A DNA stretch of 64,000 bases from Escherichia phage vB_EcoM_JNE01, in sequence record OR670491; one strand, given 5' to 3'. Below the pieces are notes generated by a model. That model was not told the DNA's origin. It worked only from the letters and a program-made list of their open reading frames with translations, and ran no database searches. Both the position numbers and the translations under genes were made by a program. Of the stretch, positions 9,845 through 38,328 are shown one piece after another (the first letter of the stretch is position 1; the number at the start of each line of letters is the position of its first letter).

Positions 9845-10380
9845 AAGAAGCTTGTGTAGTAACATTCGGGAGAGTTAACCCGATACATAAAGGACATGGA
9901 TTAGTGTTTGAAAAGGCACAATCCCTACAAGAACAGTACGATGCGGACTTAAAGATCTTCCTAAGTACCAGTACTGATAATGTTAAAAACCCCTTACCAC
10001 CTGAATTGAAAATGTATTACACAGAGGGATTCTATCCTAATGTGCAAGAAAACATTTGCATTGAGGACAATTTATTTGATATAATGAGAGAGTTAGATGG
10101 GAAGTACATGGATGTGTTGTTCATCTGTGGCTCTGACAGGATTAACTCTTTCCAAAAAACTCTTGACAGCTACAATGGTAAGCTGTATAATTTCTGTAAT
10201 ATTAAGGCAATCCAAGCAGGTATTGACCGTAATGTTAGTAAGTACAGTTCAACACAAATGCGTTCCTTTGCTAAGAATGATGACTTCGAAAGCTTCAGTT
10301 CATTTTTACCAGGGAATGATATCGACTTAAAACAAAAACTCTTTGAAGATGTAGTAAAATACATGAGGAAAGAATTATGA
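9841..10380 (+). CDS. nucleotidyltransferase, NMN/NaMN adenylyltransferase-like
   Basis: GRVNPIHKGH (HxGH-type) and C-terminal SSTQMR (SxTxxR-like) motifs. Confidence 0.5.
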   Translation: MKEACVVTFGRVNPIHKGHGLVFEKAQSLQEQYDADLKIFLSTSTDNVKNPLPPELKMYYTEGFYPNVQENICIEDNLFDIMRELDGKYMDVLFICGSDRINSFQKTLDSYNGKLYNFCNIKAIQAGIDRNVSKYSSTQMRSFAKNDDFESFSSFLPGNDIDLKQKLFEDVVKYMRKEL

Positions 10381-28364: not shown

Positions 28365-29060
28365 ATGGTTGAACAATTTATGTTTGGTGGTTATGCAAAT
28401 GGTGAAGTACGTAACATTTCTATTCCTTATGTTGTAGAAAAAGTTAACGGTTCAGAACGCACATATGACTTGGCATCTCGTATGATGCAAGACCGTATCC
28501 TATTCTTGGATACCGATTTCAACGACCAGATGGCACACATTATCAAACAACAATTGGTATGGCTTGATTCACAAGGTGATTCTCCAATCACTATGTATAT
28601 CTCGTCCCCAGGCGGTTCAGTTCACGCTGGTTTGGGTATTGCTGATGTTGCAAAATCCTGTATCTCTCCAATTCGTACTGTTGTTATGGGTTATGCTGCT
28701 TCTATGGGTTGCTATACTCAATCAGTACTGGGTACTAAGGGTTATCGTCTAGGTGGTAAGCGTTCATTCTTCATGTGTCACCAAGTAAGTTCTGGTACAC
28801 AGGGTTTGATTACTGACCAGAAGATTTCTTTGAGGCATTCTGACTCTCTGAACACGCTTCTAACGAAAGAAATCGCTGAAGCAGTAGGTGTGTCTCATGA
28901 ACAACTTCTGAAAGACGCAGACCGTGATTTGTGGCTAAATGCAGAAGAAGCACTTGAGTACGGCGAACATGGTTTCATTGATGGTATCATCCTTGGGCCA
29001 CGTGATGAAGCTGGTAAGTACCTTGTTAAGCGTCGTGGCGGCGTGGAAGAGTGGGTGTAA
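28365..29060 (+). CDS. clpP: ATP-dependent Clp protease proteolytic subunit (ClpP-like)
   Basis: SPGGSV, catalytic-Ser motif GYAASMG, His motif MCHQVSSG, Asp region RDLWLNAEEALEYG. Confidence 0.8.
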   Translation: MVEQFMFGGYANGEVRNISIPYVVEKVNGSERTYDLASRMMQDRILFLDTDFNDQMAHIIKQQLVWLDSQGDSPITMYISSPGGSVHAGLGIADVAKSCISPIRTVVMGYAASMGCYTQSVLGTKGYRLGGKRSFFMCHQVSSGTQGLITDQKISLRHSDSLNTLLTKEIAEAVGVSHEQLLKDADRDLWLNAEEALEYGEHGFIDGIILGPRDEAGKYLVKRRGGVEEWV

Positions 29061-32022: not shown

Positions 32023-32051
32023 TTGACTTATGGCAAATCTAGTGATACAAT
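32023..32051 (+). promoter_or_regulatory. sigma70-like promoter (TTGACT-17-TACAAT)
   Basis: Hexamers with 17-nt spacer; ~45 nt upstream of ATG 32093. Confidence 0.5.
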
Positions 32052-32092
32052 GCAAGAAACAACATAAAGAGGGCAAAAAAGTGTATCGATTC

Positions 32093-32692
32093 ATGAAGGA
32101 AGTGTTTCAAGCAGTTATCGTTATGATGCTTATCAATTTCCCATGCAGTGCAGGTGTGGAACGAACAAGTGTCATGCGATATTATGAGGAACCTAATGCT
32201 CTGGTGGTTATATCAGAGTTAACGGATGGTTCTGCTGACCGTATAATCAATTTTTACGATAAGACCCCATTCAAAACATTAATCATTACATCTCCAGGTG
32301 GGAGTGTAGATGCAGGTCTGAAATTGGGTTCTTTAGTGAAAGAAAATGGAATTCAAGTGATTGTTGTAAAGTACTGCAACTCTGCATGTTCCCTCGTGTA
32401 CTTCAGTTCACCGAAGGATAAGAGACTAATGGAAGATGATTCAGTACTTGGACTACATAACGTTTCAATTGAAAGCAAAGGGGGTGATGGTGATAACACT
32501 TATGTGACTATTCGACAGTTGAAGCAGTTCACAGAGGAATTGTCATCTAAAGTAGGTTTTATGTTTACGTTGTACGCCAGTAATGGTATTCCTACAAACG
32601 TACTAATGCGTATCGCAACTGCACGTGGTGATGATGTAATTGTTGTCACTAAAAAAGAATTAGAAGTTTGGGAAGCATCAATCCCTGACTGA
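32093..32692 (+). CDS. secreted ClpP/S49-like serine peptidase (putative)
   Basis: Signal-like N-terminus MKEVFQAVIVMMLINFPCSAG; TSPGGSV; CNSACS and GLHNVS motifs resembling ClpP Ser/His regions. Confidence 0.5.
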   Translation: MKEVFQAVIVMMLINFPCSAGVERTSVMRYYEEPNALVVISELTDGSADRIINFYDKTPFKTLIITSPGGSVDAGLKLGSLVKENGIQVIVVKYCNSACSLVYFSSPKDKRLMEDDSVLGLHNVSIESKGGDGDNTYVTIRQLKQFTEELSSKVGFMFTLYASNGIPTNVLMRIATARGDDVIVVTKKELEVWEASIPD

Positions 32693-32765: not shown

Positions 32766-33026
32766 ATGAGCACATTGCTTGATTGGATTTCAATCCTTTA
32801 TTATTCAATTTTAGTTTTATACAGTTTCACTATTCTACTTTCCGTTGGAATGTATAAAGAATTTCGTAATGGTTTTTTGAATGAAAAAACTAATAAGTTT
32901 GCTTCTAAATTCGAAGCAGTACTTTATTATTGTTTAGCTTCTGGATACATTACCTGTTTAGTACTAATGGGTATTCTTATGTATTTTATGGGAACCATTT
33001 TACAAGTTCTTCCATCTCTAAGTTAA
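32766..33026 (+). CDS. membrane protein (86 aa)
   Basis: Two to three hydrophobic segments. Confidence 0.5.
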   Translation: MSTLLDWISILYYSILVLYSFTILLSVGMYKEFRNGFLNEKTNKFASKFEAVLYYCLASGYITCLVLMGILMYFMGTILQVLPSLS

Positions 33027-33063: not shown

Positions 33064-33972
33064 TTAAGCTGCACTTACAACATAAGTACATTCAGCAGTA
33101 TGTGAACCATCAACTGTAGTTACGATAACACTAGCATTACCTTCACCAACTAATGTCACTAAACCTGCATTTGATACAGTAAGAACTTCATCGTTAGTAC
33201 TTGACCATACAACATCTTTGTTAGCTGCATTTACTGGGAGTACAGTTGCAATTAGTGTTTCGGTTCCACCAATTGGGCCATTACTTGATGTTTTACTTAA
33301 AGTAACACCAGTAACTGGGGTATTGACAACATATGCACAAGATGCTACTTTAGAACCATCAACTGTTGTTGCGTTGACTGTTGCTGAACCGTTACCAACT
33401 AGAGTTACTAATCCAGAATTAGACACGGTGAGTACTGCGTCATTAGTACTTGACCATACAACTGATTTATTTGTTGCATTTTCAGGTAATACAGTTGCAA
33501 CTAGTGTTTCAGAACCACCAATCTGACCATTACTAGAATTTTTATTCAATGAAATACTTTCGACTGGAACAACAACTGCGACATACTTAGTCGCGTACTT
33601 ACCAGTTTGTACTTCATTGCCATTAGTAAGAATTACTTTATGGGTGAAAAATTTATATGCAAAACCGAGTGCTTCCATAGTTGTTGCATCATAAACTTTA
33701 ACAGCGAATTCATCACGACCAAGTGCACTTGCAATTTCTTGGGCAGTGGCTGATAAATCAAGTAGGTTACGATTTTTATCTCGACCAACCATTGATACTC
33801 TTTGATAAACAGTAGTTGAATCACTATCAACTAAGTCAAACATGCGAGTACTACACTCGTTGATAATGTATAGTTCTTTATCAATTTCTTGAGCACTGTG
33901 ATCAGTTGCTGCAAAAACACAGATACCACCAACGTTGAATGGCAATTCACCAAATTTAGCTATAGGCTTCAT
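33064..33972 (-). CDS. Ig-like (Big_2 repeat) domain protein, Hoc/decoration- or tail-like
   Basis: Only reverse-strand gene; two ~85-aa repeats ...GGSETL.ATVLP.NA.NK.VVWSSTND.VLTVSN.GLVTLVG.G.A.V..TTVDGS...; AGGAG RBS. Confidence 0.6.
   Translation of the reverse strand: MKPIAKFGELPFNVGGICVFAATDHSAQEIDKELYIINECSTRMFDLVDSDSTTVYQRVSMVGRDKNRNLLDLSATAQEIASALGRDEFAVKVYDATTMEALGFAYKFFTHKVILTNGNEVQTGKYATKYVAVVVPVESISLNKNSSNGQIGGSETLVATVLPENATNKSVVWSSTNDAVLTVSNSGLVTLVGNGSATVNATTVDGSKVASCAYVVNTPVTGVTLSKTSSNGPIGGTETLIATVLPVNAANKDVVWSSTNDEVLTVSNAGLVTLVGEGNASVIVTTVDGSHTAECTYVVSAA
33100..33620 (-). repeat. tandem duplication (~255 bp period) encoding two Ig-like domains
   Basis: Repeated peptide blocks in both the - frame and the + shadow frame. 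Confidence 0.5.
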
Positions 33973-34020: not shown

Positions 34021-34049
34021 TTGACAAACATCAACAATCCTAATACAAT
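34021..34049 (+). promoter_or_regulatory. sigma70-like promoter (TTGACA-17-TACAAT)
   Basis: Consensus -35 and near-consensus -10 with 17-nt spacer, ~30 nt upstream of ATG 34081. Confidence 0.6.
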
Positions 34050-34080
34050 AGTACTAAATCCAACCGAATAGGAATAAGAC

Positions 34081-34683
34081 ATGACTTGCATCATCGCTCA
34101 CGCAACACGTACTTCATCGTTTATTGCTGCTGACAAGTTAGGTAGCAATAACTTTACAAAAGCAATCCAATCTGAGCCAAAGATCTTTGAGAAAGAGTTC
34201 GATTCTCGTGTATTGGAAGAAGGGTTTATCCCAACAATTCACAAAGATACCATGACAATCGGATACACTACATCGTTCCGTATGGGACAGTTGTTGGAAC
34301 ATTGTCTTGTTCTACCAGAGAAGCAACCAACCCAATCGTTCAAGGAATATCTAGTACAATCAGTAGTTCCAGCTATCCGCACTTTATTCCGTGAAGAATG
34401 GGGTTCTCGTGCCGATAATCAAGATGTAGGTGGTGGTCAGTTCATCATCCTTCATAAGCACAAGATCTATGAAATTCATGAAGACTTCTGTGTACTTGAA
34501 CCAAAAAACAACATCAGTGCAGTTGGTAGTGGTGCATATCATGCAATTGCAGCAATGGCAGCTTATCTAACAGTTGAAACTGAAACTGAAGTTCCATTGG
34601 TTGACCGTATTGGTTCGATCTTTGATATCGTCAGCGATCATGTTGTTAGCGTGAGTTTTGAGCATGACATTCTAAAATACTAA
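34081..34683 (+). CDS. HslV/proteasome-beta-like Ntn hydrolase (putative)
   Basis: Thr at position 2 (MTCIIA...) and ...ISAVGSGAYHAIAAMAAYL resembling HslV GSGG.YA.AAA.AL region. Confidence 0.45.
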   Translation: MTCIIAHATRTSSFIAADKLGSNNFTKAIQSEPKIFEKEFDSRVLEEGFIPTIHKDTMTIGYTTSFRMGQLLEHCLVLPEKQPTQSFKEYLVQSVVPAIRTLFREEWGSRADNQDVGGGQFIILHKHKIYEIHEDFCVLEPKNNISAVGSGAYHAIAAMAAYLTVETETEVPLVDRIGSIFDIVSDHVVSVSFEHDILKY

Positions 34684-34711: not shown

Positions 34712-34906
34712 ATGATGACATGGGATATTCTTGACATTGTTTTGCAGTTCTTGATGATTTTGATTGCAGTTGTTTGGTACAATCACATTGTTCTGTTATA
34801 TAATGAAGTTCGTAGTACTAAAGCAGATAAACATTTGACGTACCACATTTCAATCATCGTAAGTGCTTCAATTGTTCTTCTAACGAACTATTTGTTTGCA
34901 CGTTGA
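34712..34906 (+). CDS. small membrane protein (64 aa)
   Basis: Two hydrophobic segments. Confidence 0.45.
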   Translation: MMTWDILDIVLQFLMILIAVVWYNHIVLLYNEVRSTKADKHLTYHISIIVSASIVLLTNYLFAR

Positions 34907-34917
34907 AAGGTCAACAT

Positions 34918-35670
34918 ATGTCTACACAATCCTTTTTAGAAAAAGCAGGGGAAAAACGTTTACTGATAATCAGCGGGGCTGGGTTATCGGTTGAAAGTGG
35001 GATGGAGCCATTTCGTTTTGATGATGGCTTATGGGATAACTTTCAAATCAATGACGTGTGTAATATTGCACGTCTTAGTTCCAAATATCATATAGTACAT
35101 GCATTCTATAATACTCTAAGAGTAAAATTAGGTTCGTGTGAACCAAATGCAATGCACTATTACATCAAATCATTAGAGGATCAGTACAAAGATAATTTCT
35201 TACACATGACCTCCAATATGGATGATTTGTACACTCGAATCGGTGGAACCGAGTTGAAGCTTCATGGTAATCTACGAGAAGTTATTAAAAACTACTCAAT
35301 CAATAGTGATGACTATGAAGTAATTGACTGTGGTTATGAACCGTTCATTCCAGAGACTGATGTGTTCTCTAAACCAAATGTTGTTATGATTGGTGAATAT
35401 CATCGTTATGTGGATGGGAACCGTCTTCCTATCTACGAAGAACGAAATGAAGTGTTGCGTAGTCTTACTGAAAATGATACAGTAATTGTTATTGGGAGCA
35501 GTGATACAGTACTGGTATGGTCCAGACTAGCTGGGGCGTTACCTTGTTATAGTGTTACTGTTAACGTCAGAAAGAATGACAATGACTTCCTATTCAATGA
35601 ACGTATCATTAAGCCAGCAACTAAAGCAATTCCAGTACTGGAGCCAATCATTAAGGAAAGAATGAAATGA
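34918..35670 (+). CDS. Sir2-family protein (NAD+-dependent deacylase/ADP-ribosyltransferase/NADase-like), no Zn-ribbon module
   Basis: GAGLSVESGMEPFRFDDGLW, TSNMDDLYTRIGG, KLHGNL, VIVIGSSDTVL match sirtuin motifs; ATG 34918 after GAAAGG. Confidence 0.65.
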   Translation: MSTQSFLEKAGEKRLLIISGAGLSVESGMEPFRFDDGLWDNFQINDVCNIARLSSKYHIVHAFYNTLRVKLGSCEPNAMHYYIKSLEDQYKDNFLHMTSNMDDLYTRIGGTELKLHGNLREVIKNYSINSDDYEVIDCGYEPFIPETDVFSKPNVVMIGEYHRYVDGNRLPIYEERNEVLRSLTENDTVIVIGSSDTVLVWSRLAGALPCYSVTVNVRKNDNDFLFNERIIKPATKAIPVLEPIIKERMK

Positions 35671-36224
35671 GTTTGAGAGAAGTACCACTCGGAGAATTTG
35701 GCAAACAAGCAAACTTTGTATTCTGTTACTTCTTTGCACGAAATTGTAATCCATATGAGAATTACGAGTTGAATGATATTCCAGTAGTTAATCTGGTACT
35801 CCTTCAACTCCGTTGGGATGGGTTGATGGGTGGATGTGGAGGAACAGTTGAAGATTCTGATACTTCACTTGAAGCTGCGTTGAAGCGTGAAATCCAAGAA
35901 GAAATGGATTATAATATTTCCATTGAACAGTTGAAACCTCTAAAGACGTTTGAATTGTTCCCTGGTGCTAACACTCATAGCTTCAGTTATGAAGTCACAT
36001 ATGATGAGTTGAAAGCGATTCGTGACGGGTACAGTACTGCTAAACATGCCAGTGCTGAAGTAGCGGGTGTAAATTTATGTCACATTTCTCGATATTCTAA
36101 GGGAAAAAATCGAGAAGCAGGATATAATAATCTCATGACACAAAACTTCATTGGAACAGCTAAGGAAGAATTGCAGTACTTAGTTGAAAATGAAAACTTA
36201 CTTATCAGTTACTTACAAGGGTAG
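35667..36224 (+). CDS. Nudix-like hydrolase (putative, divergent Nudix box)
   Basis: GGCGGTVEDSDTSLEAALKREIQEEMDY resembles GX5EX7REUXEEXGU with altered spacing. Confidence 0.4.
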   Translation: MSLREVPLGEFGKQANFVFCYFFARNCNPYENYELNDIPVVNLVLLQLRWDGLMGGCGGTVEDSDTSLEAALKREIQEEMDYNISIEQLKPLKTFELFPGANTHSFSYEVTYDELKAIRDGYSTAKHASAEVAGVNLCHISRYSKGKNREAGYNNLMTQNFIGTAKEELQYLVENENLLISYLQG

Positions 36225-36888: not shown

Positions 36889-38328
36889 ATGAAAAAATAT
36901 ACAATTGACACAAACGTACTACTATCTGATCCAAATGCTACCATTGCTTTTGATGGAGCAGCTATCATTCTACCGTTCACAGTACTTGAAGAATTGGATT
37001 CAATCAAAAGTCGTAATGTGGATGTTTCCCGTGATGCTCGTGTTGCAATCCGTAATATTGAAGCAATCCTTTCTGATGCATCACATGAAGAAATTAGTAG
37101 TACTGGTGTTAATATTGCTGATGTTCATACTAATATGAGTCCTGAAAGCAAATTGTTTGTTATTACAAGCGAAGAAGCTGAAGCACTAATTCGCACTGCT
37201 GGTAACGAAGAGAAAGTTCAAACTCTTCTAAAAAGCACAGTACCAGATGATAAAATCATTTTAGTAGCATTAGCAACTGATTCAGTACTGGTTACCCGTG
37301 ATATCAATATGCGTATCAAGGCTCTAAGCTACGGGGTGGAAGTTCAAGATTACCGTCATGATATCGTGATTGGTGATAGTGATTTGATTCACATTGGTCA
37401 ACATCACCTTGACCTACATTTCTGGGATGTGTATAGTAATCTGACTGATGTATCTATTCAGTCTGAACAAGTTGGTCGTCGTTTGTACCACTACATTCCA
37501 AAAAGCTTGATTGAACATATCATGCCACAAAATATTTGCATCGGTGATTACCTATATGATAATGCTGATGTTCTATTTGTGTACGAAGGCCAATCTGCAA
37601 TTGAAGAAGATGATGGTACTTTAACACCAGAAGATATTCTTGTATTCCAAGATATTGGACAATCTGTTGCTCTACGTGCTAAAGTGTGGGATATTAAGGC
37701 TAAGAATATTCAACAAGCACTAGCAATCAACAGTATCCTAGATCCTGATGTTCATCTAACAGTACTGTTGGGTTCCGCAGGTACTGGTAAAACGCTAATT
37801 ACCATTGCGACTGCACTTGAATTGGTTCTTGAGAAGAAGAAATATGACCGTATTATGTTCTCAAAACCACAAGATTCACAATGGGCCGAAATCGGTTTCT
37901 TACCAGGCACTGAAATGGAAAAAATGCTACCACATTGTGGCCCTGCATTGGATGCTTTGGAATTCTTACATAAAGATGATGCATCACCACAAGGTAGTAT
38001 TGAGGAAATAATCAAGCGTAATGTTATTCAGTTCAAAGCATTGAACTTCATTCGCGGTCGTTCATTTACCAACACTATTCTGGTTGTGGATGAGTTTCAG
38101 AACATCACACCTGCTCAGGCTAAGACAATCCTTACCCGTGCTGGCATGAACTGCAAAGTGATTATTCTTGGGAACTTGGCACAGATTGATAGTAAATTCA
38201 TTAGCCCAGTTAACAGCGGCTTAACATATGTTGTTGAGAAATTTAAAAACTGGGATGGTTGTCGAGTAATCGAACTCGAAGGTGTTGTTCGTTCACCACT
38301 GGCAGAATTTGCTGAAGAAAATATGTAA
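36889..38328 (+). CDS. phoH: PhoH-like ATPase with N-terminal PIN domain
   Basis: PIN-like YTIDTNVLLSD...; Walker A LLGSAGTGKTLITIA; Walker B-like ILVVDEFQN. Confidence 0.8.
   Translation: MKKYTIDTNVLLSDPNATIAFDGAAIILPFTVLEELDSIKSRNVDVSRDARVAIRNIEAILSDASHEEISSTGVNIADVHTNMSPESKLFVITSEEAEALIRTAGNEEKVQTLLKSTVPDDKIILVALATDSVLVTRDINMRIKALSYGVEVQDYRHDIVIGDSDLIHIGQHHLDLHFWDVYSNLTDVSIQSEQVGRRLYHYIPKSLIEHIMPQNICIGDYLYDNADVLFVYEGQSAIEEDDGTLTPEDILVFQDIGQSVALRAKVWDIKAKNIQQALAINSILDPDVHLTVLLGSAGTGKTLITIATALELVLEKKKYDRIMFSKPQDSQWAEIGFLPGTEMEKMLPHCGPALDALEFLHKDDASPQGSIEEIIKRNVIQFKALNFIRGRSFTNTILVVDEFQNITPAQAKTILTRAGMNCKVIILGNLAQIDSKFISPVNSGLTYVVEKFKNWDGCRVIELEGVVRSPLAEFAEENM

Follow-up and report, generated by a model that had tools for sequence, protein, structure and literature searches.

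A gene at positions 34081..34683 (+ strand) of a 64,000-nucleotide stretch of Escherichia phage vB_EcoM_JNE01 (sequence record OR670491; hereafter, the window) encodes a 200-amino-acid protein that belongs to the proteasome superfamily, in its HslV/BPH branch, and is not an HslV orthologue. We do not regard it as HslV proper because it scores below the HslV equivalog cut-offs and is without an HslU partner. We consider it likely that the protein is a catalytically competent, proteasome-type hydrolase with an N-terminal Thr that is made early in infection, assembles into stacked rings and cleaves peptides or unfolded proteins without a dedicated phage unfoldase. An initial annotation of the window, based on the sequence alone, had noted here a Met-Thr N-terminus, a segment resembling part of HslV and a consensus promoter; every part of this observation was confirmed.

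The same annotation had taken the genome to be T4-like, which was not borne out: the closest relatives are 121Q-like jumbo phages. Over 3 kb, the window shows 98.6% identity with Escherichia phage Turkey5 (PQ471516, 351,311 bp), and it matches jumbo phages of the 121Q/PBECO4 type (genus Asteriusvirus) more weakly. Turkey5 also carries T4-type annotations, including a 'prohead core protein protease', UvsY and a clamp loader.

Profile searches place the protein in the proteasome superfamily

The profile and structure searches that had been proposed as a check on the original reading, that of an HslV/proteasome-beta-like N-terminal nucleophile (Ntn) hydrolase, were run, and they returned the proteasome/HslV family (PHROG 1040 by profile; HslV and BPH first by Foldseek). 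The PHROG 1040 'peptidase HslV family' profile matches residues 1-166 of the protein (E 2.6e-21, 77.4 bits), and the coding sequence at 34081..34683 (+) is described here as a proteasome/HslV-like (MEROPS T1-type) Ntn threonine hydrolase of that family. When a profile built from 51 family sequences was compared with the PDB, HslV chains were matched at 4e-8 and proteasome beta subunits and BPH at approximately 1e-3. Alignment with E. coli HslV using hhalign gave a probability of 96.6% (E 6.5e-10) and paired Thr2 of the phage protein with Thr1 of HslV, Asp18 with Asp17, Lys34 with Lys33, Gly61 with Gly45 (the AG of 'VIAGFAGG' in HslV) and GSG with GSGG. Together with the conserved catalytic residues described below, these matches support the Ntn hydrolase reading. 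None of the PADLOC defence models was matched by the protein.

The segment that had been likened to the GSGG region of HslV is present as AVGSGAYHAIAAMAAYL (residues 147-163), which HMMER pairs with AIGSGGPYALAAAKALL of Thermotoga HslV and hhalign with IGSGGPYAQAAARALL of E. coli HslV. Within it, G149-S150-G151 (34525..34533, +) corresponds to the HslV GSGG motif, in the region of proteasome Ser129, in the HMMER, family-profile and hhalign alignments alike.

The predicted active site and fold are those of a proteasome-type hydrolase

The open reading frame (ORF) begins MTCIIAH, and the ATG at 34081 is the earliest start codon past the upstream in-frame stop. It lies 7 nt downstream of a Shine-Dalgarno sequence, AGGA (34070..34073, +), that was read off the sequence. 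N-termini and residue conservation were counted across 259 relatives of 150-260 amino acids. Nearly all of these (250/259) likewise open with Met-Thr and lack a propeptide, which supports 34081 as the start and bears out the Met-Thr opening noted initially; the first three residues are MTC in 244.

Five residues are invariant in all 259 relatives: Thr2 (codon 34084..34086, +), the predicted N-terminal nucleophile after loss of Met and the partner of E. coli HslV Thr1; Asp18 (34132..34134, +), equivalent to proteasome/HslV Asp17 and paired with the HslV sequence GDG; Lys34 (34180..34182, +), equivalent to proteasome/HslV Lys33; Arg67; and Gly149. Nearly invariant are Gly61 (257 of the 259), S65 (257), Q70 (255), G151 (254) and Cys3 (251). 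Gly61, which is predicted to form the oxyanion hole (HslV Gly45, proteasome Gly47), opens the family signature G61-Y-T-T-S-F-R-M-G-Q70 (34261..34290, +), and the signature of the family as a whole can be written MTC..D..K.F..GYTTSFRMGQ..GG.F..G[SC]G. Judged from the alignments, the protein thus possesses the residues of a T1-type hydrolase, namely a Thr nucleophile at the predicted mature N-terminus, the Asp/Lys triad, an oxyanion Gly and a G-S-G motif. The predicted catalytic site is intact by this measure, and its residues appear to be under strict selection.

The AlphaFold2 model of the protein (predicted local distance difference test, pLDDT, 94.3; predicted template modelling score, pTM, 0.89) contains the full set of strands together with four helices, at residues 66-74, 87-107, 152-169 and 173-187, giving a predicted four-layer alpha-beta-beta-alpha Ntn fold with proteasome topology. 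A Foldseek search with this model ranked HslV and BPH at the top (E ~1e-9). A non-Ntn fold, the outcome that the initial annotation had named as speaking against its own reading, was therefore not what the model and the search returned.

The model also locates a clade-specific insertion of approximately 17 amino acids (residues 41-57, DSRVLEEGFIPTIHKDT; 34201..34251, +), which lengthens the beta-hairpin past Lys34; long strands are predicted there at 35-45 and 51-62. The columns of this insertion are occupied in only 44 of the 259 relatives, all of them in the jumbo-phage clade.

No HslU-like partner accompanies the gene

A tblastn search of the window with E. coli HslU found no HslU-like gene (best E = 2.1), in agreement with what had been stated initially. 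Searching the whole Turkey5 genome for HslU yielded a single weak match (E 7e-4), which falls on the Walker region of a 761-amino-acid ClpA-type gene, and no HslU-like ORF occurs within 6-8 kb at 166 related loci (86 viral, 80 bacterial). Thus neither the operon nor the near-identical genome provides the cognate hslU that goes with HslV proper, and we reject a phage-encoded HslU on the basis of the window, Turkey5 and the 166 loci. Across Escherichia phage records, HslU-like matches were found in 4 and the HslV-like gene in 57. HslU-like ATPases are encoded by other jumbo phages, among them Erwinia Ea35-70-like phages and Salmonella phages such as SPAsTU; across 62-80% of the length of E. coli HslU, these proteins show 33-44% identity to it.

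The gene follows a sigma70-type promoter

The consensus sigma70 promoter described initially is present at 34021..34049 (+), where a -35 element TTGACA (34021-34026) is separated by a 17-nt spacer from a -10 element TACAAT (34044-34049), with 11 of 12 positions matching. It lies 31 nt 5' of the ATG, inside a 108-bp intergenic gap that is divergent because the upstream gene (33064-33972) lies on the opposite strand. With a loose threshold, the surrounding 3 kb shows no excess of promoter-like sites (9, versus 10.2 ± 3.1 in shuffled sequences). When at least 11 of 12 matches were demanded across the window, 16 sites were found on the + (coding) strand and one on the - strand, against an expectation of 2.8 ± 1.6 per strand. 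Six of the 16, including the site before the HslV-like gene, are intergenic and precede a start codon by approximately 30-33 nt; several strong sites fall within ORFs. Four sites, at 10163, 20545, 54029 and 61407, match perfectly (12/12). Given the strand skew and the placement of six sites before start codons, the promoter at 34021-34049 is very likely genuine and active early, as one among many. Nearly all genes of the window are on the + strand, and the window looks like a long early region read by the host sigma70 polymerase.

Whether the promoter is the gene's 'own', as it had been called, has a divided answer, in that a + strand promoter does stand before the gene but is not exclusive to it, serving instead to restart + strand transcription past an inserted antisense gene. 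Ahead of the downstream genes, no terminator-like site was found on the + strand, and so the promoter probably also drives a 64-amino-acid ORF, a Sir2-like gene, a NUDIX gene and genes beyond. In 121Q, by contrast, the orthologue gp475 has no promoter of its own, because its start precedes the gp474 stop by 4 nt; gp474 is a homologue of the window ORF at 32766-33026. Moreover, gp471, the 121Q homologue of the upstream antisense gene, sits elsewhere in that genome. Taken together, these differences make the promoter a lineage-specific product of rearrangement and not a property of the family; with the antisense immunoglobulin (Ig)-like gene directly upstream, the HslV-like gene has gained a promoter of its own in this lineage.

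The antisense gene at 33064-33972 (-), the only sizeable minus-strand gene of the region, encodes 302 amino acids with two Big_2 Ig-like repeats, and its N-terminal 118 residues are 39% identical to 121Q gp471, annotated as a 'structural protein'. Its different placement in 121Q points to a local rearrangement as the source of the divergent promoter gap.

The family is widespread in phages and bacteria

The initial annotation had regarded a standalone HslV-like peptidase as unusual in such a phage; this view did not hold up. In Turkey5 the same protein is annotated as an 'ATP-dependent protease subunit' (XMR01706.1; 99.5% identical) and in 121Q as 'protease (ClpYQ-like)' (gp475; 62.5% identical), and homologues from T5-like, Vibrio and Aeromonas phages are 26-35% identical over nearly their full length. 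The gene was found by tblastn in 196 phage records (121Q-like, T5-like Epseptimavirus, Vibrio, Aeromonas, Geobacillus, Moorella and Psychrobacter), and an exhaustive profile search returned 2,522 clusters at 50% identity with E ≤1e-30 and 6,142 with E ≤1e-10. Structural matches in BFVD numbered 24, all viral. In bacterial genomes, the motif T[TS]SFRMGQ[LI] occurs in 377 stretches, a striking share of them from Polyangiaceae/Myxococcota; Streptomyces, Actinoplanes, alpha-proteobacteria and Paenibacillus/Firmicutes are further carriers.

Phage-borne proteasome homologues have been described as a class (Fuchs, Alva and Lupas, 2021; PMC8665760), and HslV genes without HslU have been noted in a jumbo phage (PMC7823757). 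The gene, its family name and its HslU-less state in phages are therefore already on record (Turkey5, 121Q, PHROG 1040 and the two papers), and the gene is an ordinary find in that it belongs to a large, catalogued phage family, whose carriers are for the most part tailed phages. An overview of jumbo phages treats ClpP and ClpS, and a search of its text by terms showed no HslV-like or proteasome-like phage protein (PMC7824862).

Homologues are found in varied surroundings. They adjoin genes for thymidylate synthase, DHFR or ribonucleotide reductase in T5-like phiR2-01, Geobacillus E3, Vibrio henriette and two metagenomic phages. Of 60 dereplicated viral loci, about 20, from smaller phages, have the gene within or next to the terminase-portal-capsid module, in orders such as TerL-HslV-portal. 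The commonest neighbours across the 60 loci are portal, capsid, terminase, ThyA, dCMP deaminase and NrdA, these associations being raw counts that are uncontrolled for chance frequency in such phage genomes. No neighbour cluster recurs in more than 16 of the 60 loci. At 80 bacterial loci only lineage-specific neighbours were seen (histidine kinases, response regulators, Hsp20 in 4, Cys-rich repeat proteins), in an analysis weakened by a simple ORF caller that performs poorly in GC-rich genomes and recovered the HslV-like ORF at 38 of the 80 loci. The lack of a recurring partner suggests that the enzyme is probably self-sufficient.

A proposed mechanism and its alternatives

In the mechanism that we favour, host RNA polymerase with sigma70 would transcribe the gene early from 34021-34049, and the transcript would probably run on into the genes for the 64-residue membrane protein, the Sir2-like protein, the NUDIX hydrolase and a PIN-PhoH protein. 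E. coli HslV matures by removal of Met through methionine aminopeptidase. The host enzyme would likewise strip Met1 from the phage protein, exposing Thr2 as both nucleophile and general base, with Asp18 and Lys34 completing the triad and Gly61 supplying the oxyanion hole. By analogy with BPH and HslV, the two closest structures, the subunits would form stacked rings with inward-facing active sites, in which peptides or unfolded proteins of the infected cell might be cleaved without a dedicated phage unfoldase.

Several observations weigh against this reading. A direct Pfam scan of the protein gave no match even at E 10, leaving the PF00227 (Proteasome) gathering threshold unreached; 9 of the 51 relatives do match that family, with a best E of 3.5e-7. 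The NCBIfam HslV models score far below their cut-offs (TIGR03692, 18.2 bits versus 157.75; NF003964, 18.9 versus 137), and their matches are confined to residues 122-167. The position equivalent to Ser129 is Ser in just 121 of the 259 relatives (47%), Cys in 115 (44%) and Ala in 5%. HslV has no counterpart of the GYTTSFRMGQ signature, the invariant Arg67 or the near-invariant Cys3, a combination that could mean a different substrate or chemistry, and the 17-residue hairpin insertion might disturb ring packing. Our literature searches brought up mentions in genome notes and the survey of Fuchs et al., but no experiments on HslV-like proteins of phages. Finally, as is generally known, HslU is present in E. 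coli and in the hosts of many of the carrier phages (Salmonella, Vibrio, Aeromonas, Geobacillus).

This last point leads to the main rival, in which the phage protein substitutes for HslV: hexameric rings would dock onto host HslU, so that ATP-dependent proteolysis of the HslUV type is redirected or boosted during infection, with host or phage proteins as its targets. That the phage has no HslU of its own, as judged from the Turkey5 genome, agrees with such borrowing, but bit scores of 18-19 against equivalog cut-offs of 137 and 158 do not. HslV Lys28 binds the C-terminal tail of HslU, yet the segment from Asp18 to Lys34, which includes the Lys28 position, is unconserved in the family, the alignment there being uncertain. 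The family is also present in Actinobacteria such as Streptomyces, for which no HslV is listed in Table 1 of Fuchs et al. (PMC8665760); together these would speak against HslU being generally required. On balance we regard the use of host HslU as unlikely.

We also think it unlikely that the protein is a proteasome-fold enzyme peculiar to phages and directed at a single defined target, such as a host protein of immunity, stress response or regulation. On this reading, the family, with its thousands of 50%-identity clusters in tailed phages, its own invariant signature and no linked unfoldase, would be something other than a generic degradation chamber. If this were true, it would represent a widespread takeover or counter-defence activity, altered further in the jumbo-phage clade by the 17-residue hairpin insertion near the active-site strand. 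A narrower proposal is that of a sequence-specific processing enzyme or transpeptidase that, like connectase, acts on one phage or host protein, possibly a defence or regulatory factor. Connectase is a proteasome-fold Thr1 enzyme that works as a specific ligase (PMC8665760), and 4 of the 51 relatives weakly match its N-terminal domain in Pfam (best E 0.002). The invariant signature of the family (MTC...GYTTSFRMGQ, with Arg67 at 100%) suggests a particular substrate, and the widely varying neighbourhoods, with head-morphogenesis genes at about 20 of 60 loci and nucleotide-metabolism genes elsewhere, fit an accessory, self-contained function. Connectase is, however, defined by a two-helix insertion between S3 and S4, where the model of the phage protein has a lengthened hairpin only, and no candidate substrate gene is consistently linked. 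We therefore hold a connectase-like role to be quite improbable.

Least probable is a role as a virion maturation (prohead) protease or as an inactive structural or decoy subunit: although portal and major capsid genes lie within 8 kb at 16 and 12, respectively, of the 60 loci, in smaller phage contigs, we reject the prohead role for this phage because near-identical Turkey5 has a separate, annotated prohead core protein protease gene between its portal and capsid genes, and the early-type region behind a sigma70 promoter, the 121Q orthologue unmarked as structural (unlike neighbouring genes) and the invariant catalytic residues speak against one part or the other of the proposal.

Returning to the proteasome-type hydrolase that we favour, the gene adds little as an annotation; what counts is the functional question posed by a very large family of phage enzymes. 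The E. coli phage version, like those of T5-like phages, offers a convenient entry point, with a tractable host in which hslU and hslV are easily deleted and a maturation predicted to need Met removal only. Its substrates would show what proteasome-type proteolysis is used for, be it host takeover, turnover of the phage's own proteins or counter-defence.

Neighbouring genes and other features

Flanking the HslV-like gene are two ClpP-like genes on one side and a Sir2/NUDIX pair on the other. The ClpP-like genes, at 28365-29060 and 32030-32692 (+), comprise one clear member (PF00574, E 4.8e-41) and one divergent one (E 1.6e-4). Outside the window, Turkey5 encodes at 164493-166778 the 761-residue ClpA-type double-AAA+ unfoldase mentioned above (AAA, AAA_lid_9, AAA_2, ClpB_D2-small), which carries 'IGM' at the position of the ClpP-docking IGL loop of E. 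coli ClpA, and at 249084-249629 an annotated ClpS that has no Pfam match. Together, these genes suggest a Clp system encoded by the phage itself.

Downstream, a hydrophobic ORF of 64 amino acids (34712-34906, +), 'hypothetical' in Turkey5, lies between the HslV-like and Sir2 genes and probably encodes a small membrane protein. The Sir2-family gene (34903-35670, +; PF02146, E 1.4e-19; no PADLOC match) overlaps by 4 nt a gene for a Nudt16-like NUDIX hydrolase (35667-36224, +). This pair is approximately 77% identical in nucleotide sequence across 121Q-like phages, and it suggests metabolism or modification involving nicotinamide adenine dinucleotide (NAD) or ADP-ribose. A link of the HslV-like gene to this pair was considered and stands as an observation only, uncontrolled for the frequency of such genes in large lytic phages. 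It is followed at 36889-38328 (+) by a fusion of PIN and PhoH-like ATPase domains (479 amino acids; PF13638, PF02562), which has weak PADLOC matches to Nhi and AbiO over about 50 residues around position 275-330. Elsewhere in Turkey5, at 330035-345731 and outside the window, about a dozen tandem minus-strand paralogues are annotated as RCC1-like, 'HERC1' or Kelch.

Comparison with known systems

Within PHROG 1040, the protein shares its MTC N-terminus and GYTTSFRMGQ signature with the 121Q, Turkey5 and other phage homologues, whereas the 17-residue hairpin insertion (41-57) belongs to the jumbo-phage clade alone. Compared with 121Q gp475, whose start overlaps the stop of gp474, the gene studied here differs in having a promoter before it. 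Structural alignments with HslV (ClpQ) give approximately 16-20% identity; the phage protein has another signature in the region of helix 1, and its Cys3 stands where HslV has Thr2. Identity to BPH (PDB 5ovs/5ovu) is 16%. BPH forms heptameric double rings with a long acidic pore loop (PMC5777263, PMC8665760) and is cellular, while the protein described here is phage-borne. With connectase (MJ0548) it shares a proteasome fold with an N-terminal Thr, in addition to the weak Pfam matches of a few relatives.

Two further types of proteasome homologue, both known from phages, were considered. PPH proteins have about 140 residues and lack helix H2 (PMC8665760); the phage protein, at 200 residues and with H2 predicted at 87-107, is not of this type. 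AAH (PMC8665760) is, like it, a group I, compact, propeptide-free and phage-borne protein, and all four flanking helices are predicted in the phage protein. AAH occurs in alpha-proteobacteria, Actinobacteria and phages, and the bacterial spread of the family, which takes in alpha-proteobacteria, Streptomyces/Actinoplanes, Firmicutes and Myxococcota, would fit this. Compared with AAH by description only, the protein would fit that group in both architecture and distribution.

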